A DNA stretch of 63,261 nucleotides, filler included, from Stramenopiles sp. TOSAG23-2 (lineage: Eukaryota): the NCBI GenBank assembly GCA_900128395.1. It is 8 parts of 8 records of this genome, joined end to end, with 100 filler letters (N's around TTAATTAATTAA, not from the genome) between each part and the next. Parts side by side here need not be neighbours in the genome. Positions count along the whole stretch, not along the records: positions 26,739 to 53,349 come from LT649430.1; 7 more parts are not named here. The stretch is one strand, 5' to 3'. A model generated the notes under the pieces. It saw only the letters and a list, made by a program, of their open reading frames with translations, had not been told where the DNA came from and did no database searches. Below, one piece after another: positions 14,398 through 61,710 of the stretch; the stretch's first letter is position 1; each line of letters begins with the position of its first letter. The translations under genes were made by a program, and so were the position numbers.

Positions 14398-16220
14398 TCA
14401 CGATCTATAATCACCATTTTCAGTTACATATTCATGTGTCAAATCAGCACCACGTACAATAGCTTCTTTATTACCATTTTCCATTCCTAAATAAACATTT
14501 ATTTTTACGCATTTTTGATGTGGTGGATAATTAATTGGGACAGGATATAAAACTTGTTCAACACCCCCATTCGTTTCATTTAAAATAATATCTGGATCAC
14601 TATCGAACATTTGTGAATCTTTCATCAATGTTTGCAATTTTGCTTCAATATCTTGATTGATTAGAAATTTACCATTATCAAAAATCAATGTATCGCCAAT
14701 TTCGATCTTCATCTTAGCCGAAGGCTCAATTCCATTATTACCTAAATAATCACCGATAGCACTTAATAATCGCCCAACATTGGGATCGTTTCCATTAATA
14801 GCAGCTTTTAGCAATGGTGAATTTACAATAGCTTTACCTACACCATTTGCTACTTCATTACTTGTTGATTCTTTAACATGAACTTTTATCACATGTTTTA
14901 CCCCTTCTCCATTTCTAACAACATCTTCGCATAAACGATCACACACTTGAAACATAGCATTTTCAAATGCTATATAGTCATTCTCATCAACCGCGTTATG
15001 ATTATTATTATGATTATTACTACTTATTGCAATTACAGTATCACTTGTACTCATGTCTGAATCTATACTAATACAATTAAATGTTTTATCAATAACACGT
15101 TTTAAAATGGTTTGCATTGAAGTTTTATCAATAGGCGCATCCGTCAATAAATATACAAGCATTGTAGCCATATTTCTATTGCAGGCATATATATAAATAA
15201 TGGTTACATGTTAGCAATGAATGTAAAAGAAATTGATGTGTGTATCTATGTATAGTAATATATATATATATATATAATCGAAGTACTTACGGTTCAACCA
15301 TACCAGCACCTTTTGCTATGCCAACCAATTTATATCCTTCTTCTTCTTCATTATTATTATTACTATTATTATTATTATTATCATCCATATCAATATGTGC
15401 ACTACGTACTTTTGGAAACATATCGGTTGTCATAATTCCTTTAGCTGCTGGTAATATTGATTTATTTTGCATATTATTTACATCACATGCTATTCCTACA
15501 TTTTCAATCATTTGTTTGACTGGTAAACTCCAACCGATTACACTGTGGAGCGTAGCGTATGAATGACAGATGTGTTAGAGAGGATAACTATTTTAGGTTT
15601 AGGGAAATAAAATTTACGTACCCGGTGCTTGAAGGTAAGACACAACACGTACTTTCATCACTATTACCATCATCATTATGCAATAATGATTGCAAACATG
15701 CATTTGCAACGTCAGTTGCATCTTGAACACCATCACTTGATGCTCGAACATTGGATATCTTATTGTTAATAACAATACCTTTCATTGCCTTCCCAGATTG
15801 TAATAATTTACGTCCATAAATGATTGGAGAGCCTGGGAATGCATTTTTAGTAAAAACGGCTCCCCAATTATTTGATGGATTATCAAGGCTAATAACAGTC
15901 ATGTTCATATTTGCATCCATAGTCGGTAATTCGACTGGATTAAAATGAAACGATGACGTACCCACTCGAAAACCTTTTGGCAATGTTGAAATACTTTCCA
16001 AAAAATTTAAATGTTCTTCCTCCGATTGAAATGTTTCATGATTTGAATGATTGGTTGTCATATATCTATTATTATTATTATTGATACAAAAATTCTTTAC
16101 ATTATAATAATAATAATTATTATTATTTGGTTGATTAAATACATTATACGATGATGAGGATGTTGTTCTAGCAGATGATCGTATTGCCTTTATTGCATAA
16201 TGTTGTCGTATTTTAAACAT
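14398..16220 (-). CDS. argJ: Ornithine/glutamate N-acetyltransferase (ArgJ), 3 exons, probable mitochondrial transit peptide
   Basis: Exons 16220-15622, 15542-15291, 15175-14398. Introns 15621-15543 (GTACGT..CTAAC..CAG) and 15290-15176 (GTAAGT..CTAAC..TAG). Splicing restores the conserved STGVIG and [14 protein letters not shown] autocleavage motifs; also [15 protein letters not shown] and [10 protein letters not shown]. Confidence 0.95.
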
Positions 16221-26638: not shown

Positions 26639-26738
26639 NNNNNNNNNNNNNNNNNNNNNNNNNNNNNNNNNNNNNNNNNNNNTTAATTAATTAANNNNNN
26701 NNNNNNNNNNNNNNNNNNNNNNNNNNNNNNNNNNNNNN
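26639..26738. other. Artificial contig linker (N44-TTAATTAATTAA-N44)
   Basis: Identical linkers occur at 53350-53449, 55003-55102, 56655-56754, 58307-58406, 59959-60058 and 61611-61710. Contig sizes fall monotonically (26638, 26611, 1553, 1552 x4, 1551). Confidence 0.98.
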
Positions 26739-36779: not shown

Positions 36780-37933
36780 AAATCCTGCCAAAATCCTGCA
36801 CCGTGTTGGTGGAAGAAAATCCTGCACCGTGTTTGTGGAACGTAGTGTTGCACCGTGTTTGTGGAACGTAGTGTTGCACCGTGTTTGTGGAACGTAGTGT
36901 TGCATATATGATGTATGTTAACTTATTTAAAAACCTGCACCGTGTTTGTGGAACGTATTGTATTCTGGGTATGCATATAATGTTAACTTATTTAAAAACC
37001 TGCACCGTGTTTGTGGAACGTATTGTATTCTGAGTATGCATATAATGTTAACTTATTTAAAAACCTGCACCGTGTTTGTAGAACGTAGTAGTATTCTAAG
37101 TATTCATGTATGTTAAAACTTATTCTTTTGAGAATATGTCATATAGTCTAGGAATTTCAAAGAACTTTTAAAAAATTACGAGTCATACTTGTAAAAAAAT
37201 ACAAACACGTTTGTATACGCGCGTATTTTATTGACATACATTTTACATTTTGACCAAGACTAGAAAATAAAACAAGGTTAAAATTATATATATATACACA
37301 TGTACAACGTTCGTAACACATAAAATATGCTTTTTCGTAAATTTTAAATTAATGTAAATATATGATATGACATATATATTGATAATATCATACACGTTCT
37401 AATAAATTATTAAATACACACTCGCTCTCAAATACACTACTCGTTCCCACAAACACGGCAATACAGGGTTTTCATCGTTCCACCAAACCTCTGGCTCACT
37501 AAATCGTTACAGGATTTTCACGTTCCACAAACACAGTGGTGCAGGATTTTCATAAGTTAACATACATTATATATGCAACACTACGTTCCACAAACACGGT
37601 GCAACACTACGTTCCACAAACACACGGTGCAGGATTTTCTTCCACAAACATATATGCAACACTACGTTCCACAAACACGGTGCAACACTACGTTCCACAA
37701 ACACGGTGCAGGATTTTCTTCCATTTTCACACGGTGCAGGATTTTCTTCCACAAACACGGTGCAGGATTTTCTTCCACAAACACGGTGCAGGATTTTTGT
37801 GTTGCAGGATTTTTGTGTTGCAGGATTTTTGCAGGATTTTCATCGTTCCACAAACTCTGGTATGTACAAAATACACACTTCGTTCCACCAACACGGTGCA
37901 GGATTTTCTTCCACCAACACGGTGCAGGATTTT
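36779..37933. repeat. Foldback-like structure: two inverted arrays of ~26-27-bp subrepeats (TGCACCGTGTTTGTGGAA core)
   Basis: Left array ~36779-37090 (+), right array ~37440-37933 (reverse complement); 36790-36833 is the exact reverse complement of 37890-37933 (44 bp). Confidence 0.9.
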
Positions 37934-39416
37934 ACACCGACATGGCTGAATTTAATAAATTTTTACCTTCCTCTGCTTTTGTTTCCAATTCTGCTGGTTT
38001 CATCATTGTTCCTCTTGCTTTTATTATAGGTGGACGTTTTGAATGATAACTAGGTGAATGTTGACGTGCTGGTGGTTTCATTGGTGGCATACCCATTGGT
38101 GTTTCAGGCGGTGCTACTTCACCATTATCCATAACTACTTGGCGTTTTGATGGACGTTTTGGTGGTGCTACACGTTTTTTTGGTGGTGGTTTAGCACCAG
38201 CACTATTACTACCAGATGGTTTAACACCACGTGGTTTCACAGGTGGTGGTTTCTTTGGTGCATTCCCACCAACAACAGCTTGTGCTATCGCTACGTCTTC
38301 TTTCTTCTCTTCATCGTTATTATTTGCAACAGCATTTGGATTTCTTGGTGGTGGTTTTGGATGTTTTGGTGCAGCATTTTTTTGATTACCACGTGGTGGT
38401 GGTTTTGCTAATTTTGCATTTGAGATCACCGTAACATTTGCATCTCCATTTACTTTATCAGTTTCTTTTGCTTTTGATGATCTCCAATCGACTTTTGCGG
38501 AATCTAATAGTAAACTCGCAGGTGTTTGATATCTTGCCATTCGAAATGGACCATTTGGACGTCTACTTTTTTGGATTACATTGGCATTTTTATGGGTATG
38601 GTATTTACGACGTAAACCACCAAAAAATCCCAAGGATCGCTTATTTCTTTGAACTACACTTGATCTAACTTGTTGATTATTATTATTAGTATTACTACCA
38701 TCCGCCATACCTTTATAATACTCATCCGTATCATTAATAAAACCTTTGATATCGGCCACGACATCGATAATTTCGCAATTTTTTTGCAACGATACACTGC
38801 GATTTCCCATTGATACTAAATCGTTCCTATGCATTTTCGTCATCTTTTGTAAATACGATTTCGATCGTTTTAAACGTGCCTCTTCAACTGTTTGTAAATT
38901 TTCTAATATTTCATCCATCGATTCTTTATGCCTGAATTGCACTTCGTTTAACCTTTTAATTTTTGTATATATAATCATTCGTACAAAATGTTAGTATTGT
39001 ATGTTTGTATGTATGTATGTATATATCGATATGTGTGGAAAGGTAAGGAAATCTATCTTTCTATAAGAATGCAGGTAAGAATGTCGGCCAACCTTGGGCA
39101 GGTTACTCGCGGCCAACCTTGGGCAGGTAGGTACTAAGAATGTAGGTAAGAATGTCGGCCAACCTTGGGCAGGTTATTCGCCGGCCAACCTTGGGCAGGT
39201 AGGTACTAACCTTTTAATTTTTGTGAAATGTTGCTGATCTAACATTTTCGTCTTTGCAACCGTTTTCTCCATTTTTGCTGCTAACTTTGCCTTTACTTCT
39301 GGTTTTAAATCGCCAGCACTTAATTTAGTCACAAGTTTTTCCGCAGCCTTTTAATTTTTGTAGATATAATCATTAGTGCAAAATGTTAGTATTGTATGTT
39401 TGTATATGTATGTATG

Positions 39417-39448
<32 letters not shown>

Positions 39449-40391
39449 GAAAGGTAAGGAAATCTATCTTTCGCATAGGCAATTAAAAATGCCTTGGGCA
39501 GGTAGGTATGTCGGCCAACCTTGGGCAGGTTATTCGGCAGGTAGGTATGTCGGCCAACCTTGGGCAGGTTATTCGGCAGGTAGGTATGTCGGCCAACCTT
39601 GGGCAGGTTATTCGGCAGGTAGGTATGTCGGCCAACCTTGGGCAGGTTATTCGGCAGGTAGGTATGTCGGCCAACCTTGGGCAGGTTATTCGGCAGGTAG
39701 GTATGTCGGCCAACCTTGGGCAGGTTATTCGGCAGGTAGGTATGTCGGCCAACCTTGGGCAGGTTATTCGGCAGGTAGGTATGTCGGCCAACCTTGGGCA
39801 GGTTATTCGGCAGGTTATTCGCCGGCCAACCTTGGGCAGGCAGGTATGTTGGCCAACCTTAGGCAGGTTACCTACAAGTTTTGCAGCATCAAATTTATTT
39901 TTTGATTTCAATGCCTCATCCATTGCATCACCAAGTTCTTTTTCCACAGCAGCTGCTTGCTCAGCAATTTTTCGTTTAATAATAGTTTGCGTATGTTTTA
40001 ATTGTATTAAATTATTACTCAATCCTTTCAACTCTTTTGTAGATGTTAATACTTCTTTACATTCTTCTAAAAGCGATTTTTTCATGGCATTCCATGCAAG
40101 CTCCAGGGTCGAACCTTTTTCACTTTCAGGTAGTATATGTCCTTTTGAAATTTCACCTAATCTATATGCATATGCTTCTTTTGCTTCTGCTAATGTATCA
40201 ATTGCAGATGCAATTACTTTTAACGAGAATTTTCCATCCCAACTACGTTCCATGCAATCAACATATCCATTTCCATAATTAATTGCTCGGTACCCTTCCT
40301 CTGCCGGGATCATTAAGCCAGCCGACATCCAATCCATATTATTTGCAGGTACAGTTGTTGCAGGTGTTGATTCTTTTTTTTTTTTCGACAT
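37932..40391 (-). CDS. F-BAR-like coiled-coil protein with Pro-rich C-terminus, 3 exons
   Basis: Exons 40391-39876, 39347-39211, 38952-37932. Introns 39875-39348 (GTAGGT..CTAAC..AAG) and 39210-38953 (GTTAGT..CTAAC..AAG) give a continuous frame (..DAAKL|AAEKL..TKIK|RLNEVQ..). EAYAYRL..GSTLELAW resembles an FCH/F-BAR signature. Confidence 0.8.
39502..39813. repeat. 39-bp minisatellite, 8 perfect copies, inside intron 1 of the F-BAR-like gene
   Basis: Unit GTAGGTATGTCGGCCAACCTTGGGCAGGTTATTCGGCAG; degenerate copies flank it and also occur in intron 2 (39070-39205). Confidence 0.97.
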
Positions 40392-41393
40392 AGTTTTTTA
40401 ATAATATACACAATATATATATATATATTATATATAGATAATAGATAATAATATTTTTTATCAATAATTATAAATAATTTGTAGTAAATAATTTCTACTT
40501 GTATGAATGTATGTATATATAATCAACAAGGTTATTTTCAATTATATTATAAAATTGTGTATATATATAGCTATATGTAATTGTTGTCTTTGTCTCTCTC
40601 AATATATCTTTTCCTTGTATTTCAACTATTTATCTGTATATCGATATGTCTCTTCACATATGTGTATAGAAATATACATTTTTATTATAATACATGGATA
40701 TATATAAGTTGTGATGGAGGCGTATAAAACAGTACATAATATTATACCAAATAGTCTACAGTACAATCAGTAGGCGTATAGGATTAGCTATCGTCAAACT
40801 TTGTGACTACCCAGACGAATAGAGCAACAACAAAAACTGGAACGATATATTAGGAAAGTTGGGAAAGCCAAAACCCAGAACCACATTTTTTTCAGTCACA
40901 GAAAGAACCATATATTTTATCATTAGATTACAACTATTATACTTGAAATGTCTCTATTTTGTTTTAACATAGTACTAGCATTACGAGTCTACACTTTCAC
41001 TCAGATTCGAAGATTTTCTTCCACCAACACGGTGCAGGGTGCCAGGATTTTCTTACAAATATTATACTTGAAATGTCTCTATTTAGTTTTAACATGGTAC
41101 TATCATTATACGATTCTACACTCAGATTCGAAGAAGATTTTTTTTGAGGAGATTTAGATTTTTTTTTTAAAAGCTAAAAAAGTGGAGGGGATTGTAACAG
41201 CATAGGATTATCATGGTAACGTATTATTAGCATGCACATACTATTAACATTTATACAAGAATTATATATTGTTGTTTGCTTTTAAAAAACATAAATACAA
41301 TAGATAGTTATAAACATACACATAAATAGATATAGATGAATCCAGAGATAGACAGAGAGAGAGAGAGATAAAGATAGTTCAGGTATCATCAAC

Positions 41394-53349: not shown

Positions 53350-53926
53350 NNNNNNNNNNNNNNNNNNNNNNNNNNNNNNNNNNNNNNNNNNNNTTAATTA
53401 ATTAANNNNNNNNNNNNNNNNNNNNNNNNNNNNNNNNNNNNNNNNNNNNTTAGAGTAGAGAAGAAAAGTGTTGTTGTGAGTGAGTGAGTCAGGATGGAGT
53501 GAGTGAGTAAGTCTTTGACACATTAAAGAGAAATTAAAATACTGGGCCAGTAATATTAACAGGGTCACAGGGTCTTTCCGGGAGATGGGGGTTTTATGTT
53601 TTCTTTCGACATCTCCTTCAAAAAATTTTTTAGCATCTTAGCTTTTTTAGAGAGTTTTAGAGTTTTTGACACACATTTTTATAAAATATTTCGTAATATA
53701 ATTAAAATAATTACACTGGAGGTACGCGTACGTAATTGTTTCTCTGTTTTTAGGAAAAAAATCAACACACCCCGACAAAATTAAATATCTCTACTCCAGC
53801 ATTTCCCCCACATATTACGAAGTTTGTAACATTTTTTTTAAACTCTTTATTTCTGCTTTTAATGCATCAATTTCCTTTACCAAACGAGCATTATTATCAT
53901 CTTTTTCTTGTTCTTTAATGCCCCCT

Positions 53927-54760
53927 TTAATTCCCATCTCCTACCCACTTACCATTTCTATCATAATGGTTTGCTTTCCCCCCGTGCTGACGTATTAATT
54001 GAACGATGTCATTTTTAATTGGACTGTCATTCCACTTATACGCGAAATCCAAGGGAGTGAATCCCTTTCCCAAGTAGCGTGCCTTCTTATTGATGGACTC
54101 CAATGACATCTTCTTTAATAGTGACTCTGTGCATCTTGTTGACTTTTTATTATAATGTGCACTCCAGTGCAGTGCATTCCATGTACCACTTGTAATGTTA
54201 GGATCACAGCCAGAGTCTAAAAGTAGTACTAACACTTTGTGCCTTTCATAAAATACCGACATCATCAATGTATGACACTCATCACCATCACTATCCTTAC
54301 CAACCTCATCCAATAACTTCCTCACAGTAACACCAGTGCCATCCACATCATGGCATTCAACGAATAATTTCAAGAATAATTTCAAGTCCTCCAAACGACC
54401 TTTTTCACACATAACTACGATTGGCGTGCCTTGCGGAAATTCTTTTTTATATTCCTGCTTTAAGTAATCCATAAATTGTATTTTATATGGATATTGTATA
54501 TTTGTACACAGTTGATATAACGTAAAATCATTTTGACTTTTACAAAACAATTGAAGAAATGATGAATATATCAATGAACTTAATGATTTCATATCTAACA
54601 TTGTAAGTATGGTGTAAACAACATTTCGTCCAGCACCACCACCTTGCAATATATCAATGAACGATCGATCAACAATATCATTTGAATCATCATCGCCATC
54701 TTTGCTTTCATCATCGTTATTATTATTATTATTATTTGTTAGTTCAATAACACAATTCAT
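53927..54760 (-). CDS. Ankyrin-repeat protein
   Basis: TPIVVMCEKG, WNALHWSA, GFTPLDFA..IVQLIRQHGG. Confidence 0.85.
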   Translation of the reverse strand: MNCVIELTNNNNNNNDDESKDGDDDSNDIVDRSFIDILQGGGAGRNVVYTILTMLDMKSLSSLIYSSFLQLFCKSQNDFTLYQLCTNIQYPYKIQFMDYLKQEYKKEFPQGTPIVVMCEKGRLEDLKLFLKLFVECHDVDGTGVTVRKLLDEVGKDSDGDECHTLMMSVFYERHKVLVLLLDSGCDPNITSGTWNALHWSAHYNKKSTRCTESLLKKMSLESINKKARYLGKGFTPLDFAYKWNDSPIKNDIVQLIRQHGGKANHYDRNGKWVGDGN

Positions 54761-55647
54761 TTTTGATATTATTTATTAGTTTTATTGGTCTTTTAATATT
54801 TTTTAATGTTTGTATTGTTTTAATACTAATTATCAAGAGATATGCGCTTGCTTTGAATTAGAGATAAAAGATGATGTGTTTTCGATTTTAATTGCCGTTA
54901 TGTGATATACGTACGTATAATTAAGATTAAAAAACACTTACAGGAGGTGTCCTCGTATATGTAATTGCGTAAATGCAATAATAGATTTTCTTTTTACTTT
55001 CTNNNNNNNNNNNNNNNNNNNNNNNNNNNNNNNNNNNNNNNNNNNNTTAATTAATTAANNNNNNNNNNNNNNNNNNNNNNNNNNNNNNNNNNNNNNNNNN
55101 NNAAAGTTGATCGACACATAGTATGATGTAATCTCTCTCATTGAAAGAAAGAATATATATATATATTTATAAATATTATTTATATTTCATAATATAATAA
55201 TTAGTAATATTTAAATATATATTTATAAAAAAACTACGAAGTAAGAAACATGAGATCTGTTCGTGGAAAAAAAAGGATCTTACTAGTTCATACGAATAGA
55301 AATGTGTGTGTGTGTGTGTTTGAGGGAGAGGGAAAAGGAATGACTTTTCAATATTATGAACGAAAAAGTATCAAAATATGTACGAGTATACGAACCTCGT
55401 ATATTATATAAAATTATATACGAACCGTATATACGAACTTCGTACGTATGATACGAGCCGTAGCATCTAGCAATATACTCGTATATTATATTATTTAATA
55501 TATTTTATGATACATGATATAATATATATCTAGCATTTTTAATGCACATACACACAAAAACTTTACGAAAAAATAAATTACGTTCGTAAGAGCTTAAAAA
55601 CATTCTTTTTTCGGACACTTCTTCTTTTTTACGACACTTTTGCCTTT

Positions 55648-56130
55648 TTAACGTTTTCTTCCCCCACTGGATGAACCGCGTTGATGTGCTCCCAACATTT
55701 GTTGTTTTTCCATCAGCTCTAAAATTTTATTTAATTTCTTATCTACATCACCTCTTAAAGCACCAACTTCTTTGCTGACAGTCTTTTTTAACTCAATTAA
55801 CTGACCATGCCAATGCCCGTCGTCTAGCTCTGTATCTAACGGCGATAACATTACAAGCCATCGCGGATTTAAAATAGGATCTTTTTTTGATGCGTACTGC
55901 TCCAGTAAATCAACAACAACTTGTGCACGACTTAACGCTGTATAAATTGAATTATATGAAATTAAATTTTTAAATCGTTGTTTACGTGTTTTGTTTGTTT
56001 CGTTGTGTTTGGTAATGATGCTTTTACATTGACATTTATGTTTGTATTTTCTTAGATTTTGCACGAAAAAGGGTGGTTCATATAATAATAAAATTTTTTT
56101 ATTTTTAGCATCAGTTACGTCGTCATATGC
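55648..56130 (-). pseudogene. Orphan C-terminal fragment resembling the post-S6 tail of TRP-like channels
   Basis: AYDDV...ALSRAQVVVDLLE..PRWLVML..WHGQLIELKK followed by a coiled coil; stops immediately upstream and no TM exons seen on the contig. Confidence 0.4.
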
Positions 56131-56599
56131 ACATTATTATCACAGCAAATGTGCCATGTTTTTGTCACAACTATGACTTTAGCAGGTACGCAGGTACACA
56201 GTCTTATAGCAGGACAAACAATACCAACAAGTATCACTATAGATAGAAGACTAGCTCAAAACAACAACTAGTACATTAAGCTCATAAGCTCAAAACAACA
56301 AATGTGCAAATCAATCAGATTCACAGTCGTCTTTATCTTTGACTTCCTGGACGGACTTCATCTTAATCTTCGTTCTTCTCTCTTCTCCATCAATATTATA
56401 TAAACTATTATAGAATAGTGCAATATAAATAAAAATTAATAATGAATAAGTAAATGAAATAAAATATTTACTCAATCAAACGACAAAAAAGAAAAGTCAA
56501 ATCTTTTAATTCTAAATATTAAAAGAATATTCCATACTATCATTTCATATAATAATTAAAATATACATACATACGTACATAAACTCTTATACAAAAAGA

Positions 56600-56654
56600 A
56601 TGTCATCATCGGTACCAGAACCATGGGGAAAATATTTCTCAAAGTCAAAACAAG
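56600..56654 (+). CDS. 5' start of a WW-domain protein (truncated by the contig end)
   Basis: MSSSVPEPWGKYFSKSKQ matches the first half of a WW domain (xPxxWxxxxSxS). Confidence 0.5.
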
Positions 56655-57290
56655 NNNNNNNNNNNNNNNNNNNNNNNNNNNNNNNNNNNNNNNNNNNNTT
56701 AATTAATTAANNNNNNNNNNNNNNNNNNNNNNNNNNNNNNNNNNNNNNNNNNNNTAAAAAAAGAGTGATGCTATTATGTAAATCTGTTGTTCTTGCAATT
56801 GGTTTTTATTTTTTTCAAAAATGATTTCTATTTCTATCTATGTATATCTACATGTATTATCTTTACTTGTGTAAAGATATTTTTTTAAAAGTGTGTGTGG
56901 TAGCCAGGTAGTGAACTAGAGAGGATCCTCTTCTCTAGTGTAAACCAGTAAAATAATATACTACTATTAATAGTAGCTCTATAGTCATATTAATACCACC
57001 GAGAGGAGTGCTTTATTATACTATAATGCGATAGCTGGATACTATATAGCACCTTACCAGGCTTACAAAATATGTCGTAGTTTCAGCTTCAATTAGCCTG
57101 TTATGATACTATACTTATACTAATAATAATACTACTTGGTATACCAAGAAGTGTGTAAAATTATTATAACTTTAGATTTTAACCATTATATATAAAATAT
57201 ATATAATGTACGCCTATGATGTCCGTTTTCCATCAGCTATTAGTGTGAAGATATAAATGCTTGCTCGAACATATTATATTATAATATTAA

Positions 57291-58139
57291 TTAACAAGAG
57301 ATGTAAAACAATGTAAGCAATGGTAAGATGAACAATACCAATGATGAAGTTGCTCTTGCGGCAATACCAATCTCTGTAGTAGTTGGACCTGGTGATGTTG
57401 TCGGTCCTTGTGTAGTCGTTGGTGCTGCAGTGGAGGTTGTCGTTGGTCCAGCGGTTGTTGTCGGACCTGGTGATGGTGTTGGGCCTTGTGTGGTTGTCGT
57501 CGTTGGTGCTGCAGTGGAGGTTGTTGTTGTGACTGTAGAGGTAAGTGATAATGCTTGACGTGACACAGTGCTTTGACCACTTGCAGTTAATACAGAAACT
57601 GTAATGTGTGTGGTTGTCGTCGTTGGTGCTGCAGTGGAGGTTGTTGTTGTGACTGTATTCGTAAGTGATAATGCTTGACGTGACACAGTGCTTTGACCAC
57701 TTGCAGTTAATACAGAAACTGTAATGGAACTTACGGATGTAATATCACTTGGAACAGTTAAATATAATGTTAACGTAGCACCAACACCGCCTTGTTTGTA
57801 AAACATTTTGTCAGTACAGCCGGTTTTTGCAGTATATCCAGTTGGTGTACTTTGTGCATTATTTGCAGATGACAAAGTACCAGCACTTGTATGAATAACA
57901 GCACCGTCCCCTTGTAAATTTGCTAAGGTTACTGTAATTTTTGCATCTCCTTGATTATATGTACTTGTGTCAAACGAAATCAAATTACTTGCAGTTATTG
58001 GAGTTGAGCCCATAATCGTACCCTTTGTCATAACATTAGAACTACTACTGGAACCAACTAAATCACACCCAGGATAACTGGGTCTTGCTTCTGCAGCATA
58101 TACAATAAATGCCAAAAATAGAGAAATTTTTAGCAGCAT
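57291..58139 (-). CDS. Secreted Thr-rich mucin-like surface protein, probable GPI anchor (Reeler-like N-domain possible)
   Basis: Signal peptide, two-Cys beta domain, TTTTSTAAP repeats and hydrophobic C-terminus; in-frame 120-bp internal duplication (57487-57606/57607-57726). Confidence 0.8.
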   Translation of the reverse strand: MLLKISLFLAFIVYAAEARPSYPGCDLVGSSSSSNVMTKGTIMGSTPITASNLISFDTSTYNQGDAKITVTLANLQGDGAVIHTSAGTLSSANNAQSTPTGYTAKTGCTDKMFYKQGGVGATLTLYLTVPSDITSVSSITVSVLTASGQSTVSRQALSLTNTVTTTTSTAAPTTTTTHITVSVLTASGQSTVSRQALSLTSTVTTTTSTAAPTTTTTQGPTPSPGPTTTAGPTTTSTAAPTTTQGPTTSPGPTTTEIGIAARATSSLVLFILPLLTLFYISC

Positions 58140-58406
58140 TTTGTTTAAACTTGTATACTTTTAAAGTTAAAAAATATTTATGATTATTATTAAATCTTCT
58201 AAAAAATAATTCTTAAATACATATCCGTTACATTTCTTCTATATTGCTCAATAAAAAAAGAGTGATACGTTTATGTATAAATCTGTTGTTCTTGCAATTG
58301 GTTTTTNNNNNNNNNNNNNNNNNNNNNNNNNNNNNNNNNNNNNNNNNNNNTTAATTAATTAANNNNNNNNNNNNNNNNNNNNNNNNNNNNNNNNNNNNNN
58401 NNNNNN

Positions 58407-59958
58407 ATTATAATTTTTGTTGACGCTGCCCCTAAATAGTTCAAAAGCTGGTATTTCTCTAGTGGTATTTGCTTATGTCGAATTATTTGCAAAAGGATTA
58501 GGGACATTTCGATCCTTTCATTATGACATTCTATTAATGCCTTTAAGACTAAATGTGTATCTTTTAAAAACATTGTCCTTGTTTTTAATATTTTAAGTGA
58601 CGTCTCGTATTTTTTTAACTTTATTTCATGTGGCTCATTTTTGGAGTTTAAGTTTTGATCTGATGATCTGTTTCGTGAAATATTAAGTCGAACGTCATTA
58701 TTTACTACACTACTAGATGGCTGATCATGGATATCCATAGTATGTTTAAGCAGCATTACGCATTCTCCTACTTTATCTATTATCTGTTCGTCATCTATAG
58801 AATTATATGACTTGATATCCATGATCAGTGAATTCATCTGATCAAGCAATATCAAGACTGCGTTTTCATTGTTTATCTATTGTTTTTTTTATTTCATCTC
58901 CATTAATAGGGTCAATTTTGATCGTGTTGTCAATTATGAAACTTGACATAGCCTCTATCATACCATCTTCCGTTTCTTTTATCCTTTTGGCCCTAACTGC
59001 TATGTTGTCCATAATTATTGCTTCTAATTCTACATCAATTGCTGCAGCGCTTTGACCTCCGTGATCTTTGCTTAATTTTATTAATTCATGCATAACACCA
59101 GCGCTTTTTTCTGCCAATGCAAATTCCCTGTGTACTGTTTCAATCAATTTAGGGAAATATTTGTTGCTATCATCATCGTCAATGTTTTCATAGTGCTGTT
59201 TTGACATCACGATGTTAAATATTTCATTAAATTTACCTTCAAGTAATTTTTTCTGCAATTCATGGATTTGTTCAACATATTCATCTCCGTGGATACCAGA
59301 GTATTGTTTTTCAAGCGATGCAATCCATCGTTTTTCATCGTTGGATTTTTCATGAATATTCTTGTTGAACATTTTTTGCTTACTTTCTATACTATCTATG
59401 AAGTCTTTAAATTGGAAGTACATGTTTGAAATGTGGGCAAAAATTGCACCAATAGCTGTGCAAACTGGAATCGCTAGTTCTGGTTTTATGACAACACCGA
59501 TCAATGTCCATAAGAAGACATTCGCTGTTACAATTAAAGATGCGGTATATCCTAATGTCCGAATAAATGAATGTACACTTTTGATGGTAATAGGAATGTT
59601 GCAATCTATTTTTTGCAATGGTGTTGCAAGTACATTTCTTGTTGATGTTAAGAATTCCCACGTGTCAAAAATAATTGTTATTACTGAAAGATGTAGGCCC
59701 CAAAACCCAATTTCTTTAAGATAATCGTCCATTGGTTGATGAACATAAATATTTGCATTAACAACTTGCAAATAAACCCACACAATTCCCAACGTTGGCA
59801 GACTGGGCAATATTATAATCAAAATAAAAAGAACAGCTCGCTCAATACGCTTTAAATTGCGCCATTCTAAATCCACCAACATTTCGATTTTACCATCACG
59901 ACTTTTTCTTCTCCTTCTCCTTCTTTGTTTTTTCAAGTTTAATGAAAGAAGTTATGAA
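58407..59958 (-). pseudogene. Internal part of a large multi-pass membrane/coiled-coil protein with apparent frameshifts
   Basis: ORFs 59936-58866 and 58855-58407 join if one A is removed near 58873 (IDK*/INNENAVL overlap); a second frame break lies near 59900-59940. Confidence 0.55.
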
Positions 59959-60427
59959 NNNNNNNNNNNNNNNNNNNNNNNNNNNNNNNNNNNNNNNNNN
60001 NNTTAATTAATTAANNNNNNNNNNNNNNNNNNNNNNNNNNNNNNNNNNNNNNNNNNNNAATTATGAATAATGATATTTGATAAAAATATAATTTTATATA
60101 TATATATATATAATTTATTGTATATATATAATGCCTATGATATTTTTCATCAACCAAATGTTGATAACATCTATGTACCTCATCGGTAATTCCTGTTAAT
60201 AGGAGTTCCCAGAGTTATCATACTGTGAGATACGTTGTCTAAATATGATATATTGCATATTTTGGGAGTAAAATTATTATACAGTGTCATAACTTAAAAA
60301 TTAAGCATCATATGAGGATATAATATATATGGGGTGCATCATATACGTACACTGATAATATATATGTATATGCATATCATAAGTGCATAACTTAGATTTT
60401 AAGCATCTTTATATTTATTAAAATCTA

Positions 60428-61135
60428 TCAATGCGAAAAGATATGAAGACAAAACCAAAAGAAAAATAAAGTAAATATCATGCATCCAAGAATCAAAAAT
60501 CGATCGCTACATTCTCGATGTTGTATAACGCGTATGACAGAATTACTTAGGCCTAAGGTATGCATCATATTCATAACACCAGTTTTCATACGTTTAAAAC
60601 GGTCCCATTGGCCTTTTAAAGTAGACATTACATCGCTTGAATGAGCGTTCATTTCATCTATCATTCCAATTGAATTTTTTAACGCTTCATTGGCATCTAA
60701 TAAATTGCCCGTGGCGTCGCGGTTGCGCAGGGCTTCCTGGTAGTCAAAAAGTTGCTGTCGTTCGTTGTGTTCTTGCGCTAATCGATTCCATTTGTTTTGG
60801 AGTTTTTGTAGTGATCGAGTATACGAGTTATATTGTTCCCATAAATCTACAATCCGTCGCTTCCAGAGTTCCTTATTTTTCAGCTCCTGCTTAATCGCAG
60901 TATCAAGCCTTTGCAAATTATCATACAGATGAACTAAATCGGTTGTTACTCTACGATGGCCATCATCTGTGGATCCATAATTTGATTCTAACTCATTTAG
61001 CGTAAATGATATTTCATATGCTAACTTTTTGGTACGTGGATATAAATCAGCGCATGATTCGTTATTATTATTACCTGATGTTTTTGATCGAAGGACATTA
61101 CCAGACATGTTATGATATGGATATTGTCCATTCAT
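60428..61135 (-). CDS. Qb-SNARE, membrin/Bos1/GOSR2 family
   Basis: Helical N-domain, ERQQLF, SNARE heptads with a central Q (LKGQWDRF), TLGLSNSVIRVIQHR..DR and C-terminal TM helix. Confidence 0.88.
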   Translation of the reverse strand: MNGQYPYHNMSGNVLRSKTSGNNNNESCADLYPRTKKLAYEISFTLNELESNYGSTDDGHRRVTTDLVHLYDNLQRLDTAIKQELKNKELWKRRIVDLWEQYNSYTRSLQKLQNKWNRLAQEHNERQQLFDYQEALRNRDATGNLLDANEALKNSIGMIDEMNAHSSDVMSTLKGQWDRFKRMKTGVMNMMHTLGLSNSVIRVIQHRECSDRFLILGCMIFTLFFFWFCLHIFSH

Positions 61136-61710
61136 TTTTGTTGTTGTTGTAGTATAATGATATAAAATGAAGATGGTGGTATTTTAGGAATGGGGAGAAA
61201 AATTAATTATCAATAGGCAAACACAAATAAGATGTTATATTATTATTATTATTACTGAATTAAACATATGTCAACAATGATGAAAATATGAATGTGATTG
61301 ATATTTGATGCAGCGCAATATATGATTGTGTTTATAAGTATAATTTCAATATTATAATTCTATAGAAATAGTTGCAATAAATAATAATAATAATAACCAA
61401 AATGACATACAAAAACGCGTATTATATTAATATTTTTAATTTTTTGATAACATATAAATTTGAACTTTTCCAAAATCTAAATCTATAAATCATTTTTGCC
61501 TTTTGATAGGAAGCTTTAGCTTATACTTGTTAGTGCTCAAATATTTCTATAGATGTCACGTCAGCAATTTTAGGTACAAAAATCGTACTTTTTAGAATAT
61601 ACTAATCTTTNNNNNNNNNNNNNNNNNNNNNNNNNNNNNNNNNNNNNNNNNNNNTTAATTAATTAANNNNNNNNNNNNNNNNNNNNNNNNNNNNNNNNNN
61701 NNNNNNNNNN

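Follow-up and report, generated by a model that had tools for sequence, protein, structure and literature searches.

Two related introns in one gene of Stramenopiles sp. TOSAG23-2 and a small dispersed family of introner-like elements

How do new spliceosomal introns arise? The question is an old one and still open: most of the well-supported cases are DNA transposons, and there is little direct natural evidence for RNA-based transposition of an intron itself. It is raised again by a 63-kb stretch of DNA from Stramenopiles sp. TOSAG23-2, referred to below as the window (all positions count along it). One gene in this window carries two neighboring introns that had been predicted, from the sequence alone, to be copies of each other. 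The layout of this host gene is as follows.

39876..40391, minus strand: exon 1, with the ATG codon at 40389-40391, as seen in the open reading frame, its translation, the database protein P0121, and RNA contigs (X15 record 2 and X17 record 11)
39348..39875, minus strand: intron 1 (copy B), 528 nucleotides (nt), GTAGGT..TACTAAC..AAAAG, phase 0, polymorphic, delimited by RNA joints
39211..39347, minus strand: exon 2, 137 nt, the last 14 nt of which, ACAAAAATTAAAAG, encode part of TKIKR(L)
38953..39210, minus strand: intron 2 (copy A), 258 nt, GTTAGT..TACTAAC..AAAAG, phase 2, delimited by RNA joints
37932..38952, minus strand: exon 3, ending with the stop codon, as seen in the translation, P0121, and RNA contigs

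The spliced translation of the host gene is the same as P0121 (557 amino acids) except for one residue, and the two introns are real spliced introns that are excised exactly. When RNA contigs from X15 and X17, two sequencing runs from separate studies, were mapped on the window, each run provided a single contig with two joints, 38948>39207, which skips 258 nt (18 nt fit on either side), and 39346>39875, which skips 528 nt. The skipped ends read CT..AC on the plus strand, that is, GT..AG on the strand of the gene.

The similarity of the two introns, in both their 3' and 5' parts, is borne out by the sequence. In both of them, the 3' module consists of GAAAGATAGATTTCCTTACCTTTCCACAC, a CA/TA microsatellite, CATACAATACTAACATTTTG, and the terminal ACAAAAATTAAAAG, in this order, and 104 of the 123 aligned columns are identical, with the mismatches coming mostly from misalignment of the microsatellite. 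The 29-mer GAAAGATAGATTTCCTTACCTTTCCACAC has exactly two matches in the window, one in each intron, where none would be expected, and a 20-mer around TACTAAC (the CATACAATACTAACATTTTG region) has the same distribution. The TACTAAC branch-site consensus, found in intron 2 at 38996..38990 (minus strand), is located ∼38 nt upstream of the AAAAG acceptor in either intron; each family element supplies its own splicing signals, namely, a GT donor, TACTAAC, and an AAAAG acceptor. The 5' parts are built of repeats that contain the 17-mer CCTGCCCAAGGTTGGCC. With up to two mismatches allowed, this 17-mer is found 14 times (expected, 0), with four copies in intron 2, all inside a 71-nt internal duplication, 10 copies in intron 1, and none in the rest of the window. 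The flanking exons are colinear with their orthologues, with no tandem exon duplication. As had been predicted, they are unrelated to one another, and the 3' end of intron 1 carries the 14 nt that end exon 2: the 14-mer ACAAAAATTAAAAG occurs in the window at exactly three places (the ends of intron 1, exon 2, and intron 2), compared to 0.37 expected. The part of the read-through reading frame that derives from the introns had no homologues at E values of ≤0.01 among 8,000 candidate proteins. The principal features of the two elements are the following.

39497..39840, minus strand: GC-rich tandem array of a 39-nt unit in intron 1 (TRF, 8.8 copies, 98% matches; repeat families D1-D3), each unit with CCTGCCCAAGGTTGGCC
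39348..39472, minus strand: 3' module of intron 1, comprising GAAAGATAGATTTCC..CCACAC, the CA/TA microsatellite, TACTAAC at 39391..39385, and the tail ACAAAAATTAAAAG at 39361..39348
39207..39224, minus strand: upstream copy of the 18-nt direct repeat ACAAAAATTAAAAGGTTA (repeat family D9, 100%), spanning the exon 2-intron 2 junction, with 4 nt in the intron
38949..38966, minus strand: downstream copy of the same direct repeat (D9), made up of the last 14 nt of intron 2 and the first 4 nt of exon 3

Are these introns a local pair or members of a dispersed family? Metagenome contigs were scanned with a 19-mer of the motif, which yielded 16 loci. Six of these (L004, L005, L007, L008, L014, and L016) are AT-rich (33-35% GC) and related to the window; the other 10 (L001-L003, L006, L009-L013, and L015), with 56-66% GC and no BLAST match to the window, were discarded as chance matches. 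Genome contigs and viral contigs, scanned with two patterns each, gave no matches to the element, and a search with the 17-mer CCTGCCCAAGGTTGGCC revealed no further copy in the remaining 61 kb of the window. In locus L014, a third full copy shows the GC repeats and the 3' module with the tail ACAAAAAATTAAAAG; the exon downstream is a different one and encodes part of a long coiled-coil protein with a Pfam EF-hand pair. This copy ends with ..ATATACAAAAAATTAAAAG and intron 1 ends with ..ATCTACAAAAATTAAAAG, both being homologous to intron 2 through the acceptor AG. Loci L004 and L016 represent two versions of a single kinase gene, in which the intron splits the Pkinase domain at DIW|AIGV. It starts with GTAGGTACC, includes two motif units and CATACTAAC, and uses the acceptor CTGCAG, which differs from AAAAG; its 3' module, recognizable but more diverged, is kept in L016 and deleted in L004. 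Loci L005 and L007 show an intron with a single 39-nt unit in a gene with RCC1 repeats. The 39-nt unit is common to all copies and the 3' module is common to copies A, B, and C and, more weakly, D; the 14-nt tail is absent from the copies in the kinase and RCC1 genes. Splicing of the elements in L014, L004/L016, and L005/L007 is supported by the reading frames and Pfam domains that resume past the intron. At all six known insertion sites, including a third site in the host gene that is described below, the motif is in the sense orientation relative to the gene. Because related introns are found in three other genes, the family is dispersed and extends beyond a local pair; judging by these sequence similarities, both introns of the host gene are introner-like elements and members of this small family.

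Another family of similar introns, again in genes unrelated to one another, is suggested by the 78-nt intron of the ArgJ gene (window positions 15544-15621, minus strand), which resembles the ends of the RCC1-gene intron (L005:4779-4928 and L007) over 27 nt (89% identity) and 38 nt (89% identity). The RCC1-gene intron of L005 has a single GC-rich 39-nt unit nested within an ArgJ-like intron. The ordinary introns of the host organism look shorter than introns 1 and 2.

Is intron 1 a recent arrival, as the original prediction of an active process would have it? Both filled and empty alleles of its site are present on metagenome contigs. Locus L008, which is syntenic with the window at 96-99% identity, has intron 2 and lacks intron 1, its empty site reading ..GCAAAAGTT|GCTGCGG.. 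(also ..GATGCTGCAAAAGTT|GCTGCGGAAAAACTTGTG..). A 694-nt contig from run X2 (record 16, depth 19.4) has the joint 39346>39875, without intron 1, and shows no differences from the window over 665 nt; run X2 contains DNA, since it covers intergenic stretches too. The empty site is AAACTT|GCTGCG in X2 and AAAGTT|GCTGCG in L008, and the filled site equals the empty site plus exactly GT..AG, with an ambiguity of 1 nt. With the empty site known, the target duplication at intron 1 amounts to 0-1 nt. On the filled side, a protein search with a 161-residue frame over intron 1 returned 241 proteins at E values of ≤0.001. Nine higher-identity matches of the 150 listed were examined; among these nine, P0165 is the only one that represents the element, and the other eight are unrelated repeat proteins. 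P0165, a 120-residue frame on a separate 6,826-nt contig, reads out of exon 1 (..KFDAAKL) into intron 1 (VGNLP..) and on through a B-type 3' module (..CTNDY), and the repeat region in this allele is shorter and more degenerate than the one in the window. In related species, the orthologues P0124 (59% identity) and P0125 (57%), encoded on 34-kb and 42-kb contigs, respectively, are uninterrupted across both intron sites. Their segment FDAAKATTEQLVTK has the same length as FDAAKLAAEKLVTK in the window (..FDAAKATTEQLVTKIS.. in the orthologues versus ..FDAAKLAAEKLVTKLS.. in the window), which means that intron 1 has added no residues to the protein. Thus, intron 1 is young and polymorphic in wild populations; its membership in the family and its recent gain can, taken together, be considered highly probable.

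The last 12 nt of exon 1 (39876-39890) and the first 15 nt of exon 2 (39331-39347, both on the minus strand), GCTGCAAAACTT and GCTGCGGAAAAACTT, resemble each other and encode AAKL and AAEKL, respectively. These flanks were considered as a degenerate target duplication and rejected as such, because the empty alleles already contain both of them and the orthologous proteins have equal length.

The site of intron 2 has a different structure. The orthologues have ..YYSNIKRLNEV.. (..YYSNIKRLNEVQF..) and ..YYSNIKKLNEV.. (..YYSNIKKLNEVQF..) where the window has ..HFTKIKRLNEV.. (..HFTKIKRLNEVQF..), all of equal length. The presence of SNIKRL and SNIKKL in P0124 and P0125 at the position of TKIKRL indicates that the 18-mer encoding TKIKRL is old host coding sequence. 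The second copy of this 18-mer, formed by the last 14 nt of intron 2 and GTTA, is a duplicate made at the origin of intron 2, and the AG|GT within it supplies both splice junctions of that intron. The target duplication is 18 nt long at intron 2 and 0-1 nt at intron 1, so there is no constant duplication length. The X2 contigs stop exactly at the borders of the 18-nt repeat, with record 16 starting at 39207 and record 15 ending at 38966. Two proteins, P0123 and P0149, lack intron 2; both may be transcripts. Since the 14-nt tail is host-derived and is absent from the distant copies, the tail-bearing copies, intron 1 and L014, must trace back to the intron-2 locus as it was once the insertion had taken place. 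The boundary of the copied unit would thus have been the 3' splice site of intron 2, rather than the border of the DNA that had been inserted at first. The predicted order of events, with intron 2 coming first and being then copied upstream, is upheld in that intron 2 is found in an allele without intron 1 and that the tail comes from the host.

The 5' half of intron 2 (window 39064-39194 versus L008:750-994) is wholly different between near-identical strains. In L008, it consists of one 17-mer followed by ∼6 copies of a 14-nt unit, and in the window, of the 71-nt duplication with its four 17-mers; the 3' module is ∼98% conserved between the two. Because minisatellite turnover is very fast, the 5' halves carry little historical signal.

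The host gene may have been hit at one more position, and the lead comes from the protein sequence of P0149.

38449..38453, minus strand: putative third insertion site of the element, empty in the window and filled in other samples only

In P0149 (395 amino acids, two contigs), exons 1 to 3 are contiguous up to ..KAKETDKV, after which the protein continues as SNLPKVGRHE*, which is a translated element unit. The break maps after position 38450 of the window, and the tblastn alignment stops at 38448. Run X5 shows the contig borders that a branch point should produce: its record 24 begins exactly at position 38450, and the neighboring record 23 terminates at 38479. This leads to the suggestion that the same element occupies a third position of the 1.7-kb host gene in other cells. 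If the P0149 contig is genomic, it has gained a new intron while being devoid of introns 1 and 2, which is a signature of cDNA recombination; if it is RNA, it is merely a partly spliced transcript. In the former case, the gain of a new intron along with the loss of its two neighbors is what the reverse-splicing model predicts. The occurrence of three sites in one gene and none in the remaining 61 kb hints at local re-insertion or a favored target.

What process could have produced this pattern? The account that we favor, which combines an introner-like family, the history outlined here, and RNA-based copying, appears reasonably probable as a whole. An older element of the kinase-gene kind would have been inserted into the host gene at ..ACAAAAATTAAAAG|GTTA.., and intron 2 would have arisen through this insertion and the 18-nt target duplication that came with it. 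Copies that end at the 3' splice site of intron 2 and have 14 nt of host exon as a tail would have followed, one of them entering the EF-hand coiled-coil gene of L014. A further copy would have landed 137 nt upstream to become intron 1, with no target duplication and no change in the protein, and another one would have been inserted into exon 3, in other samples. The transposing unit would be the excised intron RNA. Its return to DNA could proceed through reverse splicing, reverse transcription, and recombination or, alternatively, start from intron cDNA that is captured or primed where the DNA is broken. Copying of an excised RNA is favored because the copied unit stops at the 3' splice site, whereas a transposase acting on the ends of the element predicts otherwise. 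The same reading is in keeping with the findings that all copies are in the sense orientation and that intron 1 is delimited exactly by GT..AG and lacks a target duplication. We infer an RNA (spliced-intron) intermediate with slightly more confidence than doubt; that the integration step was reverse splicing specifically is a weaker proposition and somewhat doubtful. It may also be suggested, tentatively, that the intron-2 site was the birthplace of an introner subfamily with exon tails, in which excised intron RNA transposes and the process is ongoing, as there are three sites in one gene, two of them polymorphic.

Several observations weigh against this account or parts of it. Reverse splicing, proposed already in the original prediction, is compatible with intron 1, given its splice-site bounds and the lack of a target duplication, and with the 3' ends of intron 1 and the L014 copy; it cannot produce the 18-nt duplication at intron 2, and the 5' ends vary. 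The two introns would require either two mechanisms or one that accounts for both, based on break repair or target priming; a single alternative of this sort would be for intron cDNA to be primed or captured at breaks, staggered or blunt, yielding duplications of 18 and 0-1 nt. Further, the data do not show today's intron 2 to be the direct donor of intron 1. Both known intron-2 alleles, those of the window and L008, are characterized by CTGCC and GTACGAATG, as opposed to TTGCC and GCACTAATG in intron 1 and L014, so that intron 1 lacks three substitutions that these two alleles have in common. The intron-2 states look derived because the kinase copy has TTGCC, too; accordingly, intron 1 was copied either from intron 2 at an earlier stage or from a sister copy, for example, L014. 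An earlier donor fits awkwardly with the absence of intron 1 from L008, unless the polymorphism is old or a sister copy was the donor. The 5' ends of the two introns also differ: intron 1 starts with GTAGGTAACC, which is similar to GTAGGTACC of the kinase copy, and not with GTTAGTACC, as does intron 2, in which the first 4 nt derive from the target duplicate. The L014 copy is cut at its 5' end by the end of the contig, and its 3' splice site is placed by homology only. The sense-only orientation is seen at six known sites, and selection alone could yield sense-only copies in coding exons. Loci L004 to L016 may come from sister species rather than from the genome of the window itself, and the type label of runs X2 and X5, "DNA?," is a guess. 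L008 is not a clean assembly, as its sequence beyond position 1421 is joined in an inverted order compared to the window. Finally, the alleles without intron 1 could stem from precise intron loss.

At the inverted join in L008 (L008:1417-1425 versus window positions 38529 and 40643), the 5' part of the gene is inverted and joined to the region upstream of the gene, which reflects either a chimera or a true inversion. Coverage gaps, from which no conclusion is drawn, extend over 39216-39416 and 39819-40421 in run X5 and over 38010-38411 in run X2.

The precise loss of an older intron 1 through recombination with a spliced cDNA, as opposed to its recent gain, would leave intron-less alleles that match the mRNA sequence exactly, and that is how they look. 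In addition, the repeats in the P0165 allele are far more degenerate than those in the window, so intron 1 is not brand new, and it retains ancestral-looking states compared to both intron-2 alleles. However, both introns are absent in two related species, the intron-less X2 contig is identical to the window over its 665 nt, and a cDNA would be likely to take out intron 2 at the same time, given the distance of just 137 nt, while L008 keeps that intron. Such a loss is quite unlikely. An alternative to copying through RNA would be a non-autonomous DNA transposon of the algal-introner kind, with ACAAAAATTAAAAG as its own right end, that was moved or copied by a transposase and inserted beside a similar site. 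A direct repeat does flank intron 2, and a possible repeat of 4 nt (intron 2, GTTA; third site, GTAA) could represent a short target duplication; besides, most introner families outside ascomycetes have target duplications and/or inverted ends, according to passages of PMC9860276. On the other hand, a repeat search over positions 38000-41000 found no terminal inverted repeats, that is, no inverted pair joining the ends of either intron, and intron 1, for which the empty site is known, has no target duplication. A match of 14-18 nt between the end of the element and conserved host coding sequence would be unexpected by chance (the three matches are all here), the insertion sites of intron 1 and L014 show no homology to the element end, and the tail is missing from the older kinase and RCC1 copies. 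Overall, a transposon origin of this kind is unlikely.

That the pair arose locally at the DNA level, through replication template switching or through gene conversion involving the two neighboring introns and without any mobile family, is suggested by the spacing of the two copies, only 137 nt apart, and has parallels in the same-gene intron duplications known in fungi, half of which are segmental (as stated in parts of PMC3609843). Such an origin is contradicted by the related introns in three other genes (L014, L004/L016, and L005/L007), as well as by the exact GT..AG bounds of the insert and by the flanking exons, which are unduplicated and colinear with the orthologues, and must be considered very improbable. 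Finally, intron 1 might have been misplaced by the assembler or through amplification chimeras. The likely source runs, X1 and X3, are very small (17-21 million letters), L008 contains the inverted join, and contigs that skip intron 1 do exist. Nevertheless, the insert is in the sense orientation, bounded by GT..AG with 1 nt of ambiguity, leaves the frame intact, and has a branch site; a separate 6,826-nt contig (P0165) also runs from exon 1 into intron 1. These data contradict a misassembly, which the original prediction had named as a possible refutation, and make an artifact scarcely credible.

How does this family compare with the known ones? Introners without target duplications or inverted ends include fungal introner-like elements and some Micromonas families (van der Burgt 2012 and Simmons 2015, as cited in PMC9860276, PMC3609843, and PMC10996645), and some authors suspect that these are moved by the spliceosome, according to sections of the same three papers. 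Similarly to these, the elements described here are non-coding introns of a few hundred nt that are similar in unrelated genes, are all in the sense orientation, have their own splice signals, and include recent gains. The differences include the number of known sites, six here versus hundreds per genome there, the fast-changing GC-rich minisatellite in the 5' half, the host-exon tail in a subfamily, and the 18-nt target duplication at the founder. Stable structures are ascribed to the fungal introner-like elements in portions of PMC3609843; in contrast, the predicted fold of intron 2 is not unusual, with a minimum free energy of -47.1 kcal/mol versus a mean of -43.6 for shuffled sequences (z = -0.80).

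Introners of marine algae were reportedly described as DNA transposons by Huff in 2016. Such elements are known from Micromonas, Aureococcus, Symbiodinium, Chrysochromulina, and Florenciella (Gozashti 2022; extracts of PMC9860276). They share with the present family a marine protist host, a splice site that comes from the duplicated target (AG|GT in intron 2), and an unchanged mRNA. Their target duplications are 3-9 bp long, unlike those found here, of 18 bp (intron 2) and 0 (intron 1), and inverted ends were not found here in the repeat search mentioned above. The presence of part of the mother's target duplicate in the daughter copies is also unlike cut-and-paste transposition.

Same-gene intron duplications are known in fungi, with C. 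elegans also mentioned, and have been read as intron transposition within one transcript (sections of PMC3609843); in Oikopleura, intron spread via an RNA intermediate has been proposed (Denoeud 2010, as reported in part of PMC4122922). As in those same-gene cases, introns 1 and 2 are nearly identical, occupy different positions, and have unrelated flanking exons, but here there are relatives in other genes, one polymorphic member, and a third polymorphic site in the gene. Variable duplications (18 and 0-1 nt) and heterogeneous 5' ends, not clearly truncated, are reminiscent of non-LTR (long terminal repeat) retroposition. In target-primed retroposition by non-LTR elements, including the short interspersed element (SINE)-like kind, the end of the RNA sets the 3' end of the copy, target duplications vary, and 5' ends are heterogeneous. 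The present copies differ in having no A-tail or 3' microsatellite at the junction, and no reverse transcriptase gene was seen, although no genome-wide search was made for one.

Introners and same-gene intron duplications are already known, and the unusual aspect of this locus is the combination of a founder locus with a captured exon, daughters cut at the splice site, and coexisting alleles. A non-exhaustive literature search turned up no host-derived tail in introners. The introner surveys, to judge from excerpts of PMC9860276 and PMC12130899, report introners in 175-201 species, ocean-survey genomes included, so this family may already be among the introners that they list. The locus offers a marked founder copy, daughters that bear the mark up to the splice site, and empty and filled alleles in present-day seawater, which makes it, given raw reads, a natural case for timing, donor-recipient inference, and allele-frequency work; the organism is sufficiently abundant to appear in runs of 11 studies.

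The source organism, an uncultured marine protist, is tentatively placed with the stramenopiles by protein comparison. The isoleucyl-tRNA synthetase encoded in the window is 94-97% identical to metagenome proteins and about 62-71% identical to those of named eukaryotes, with stramenopiles prominent among them. The window is AT-rich (32% GC), with long genes and few interruptions. No Pfam families were recognized in exons 1 and 3 of the host gene. The intron-riddled transfer RNA (tRNA) 3 kb away, on which the original prediction drew as a further sign of intron creation, finds no support: in the whole window, ARAGORN found no tRNA genes and Rfam no families at the gathering score.

The host gene is flanked on both sides by a 26-nt repeat, TTCCACAAACACGGTGCAGGATTTTC and its variants, which is both dispersed and tandem (window positions 36797-37116, 37569-37933, and 40928-41134). 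The same repeat is found beside the kinase gene (L004:1357-1498 and L016:452-523), with up to 100% identity over 70 nt, and the summed contig depth at this repeat is high in RNA and DNA runs alike. Paired runs of N (2 × 44 nt, 12 nt apart) are found at positions 26639-26738 and at six sites from 53350 to 61710, so that the last 10 kb of the window contain six such pairs at a spacing of 1,652-1,653 nt, a regularity suggestive of masked or withheld sequence. P0154, a protein of the P0121 cluster, departs from exon 1 after ..ALKSKNK, at approximately position 39893 of the window, and continues into the unrelated sequence LDSLNKCLLEYETHMSIY, a divergence that may reflect a chimera or another rearrangement.

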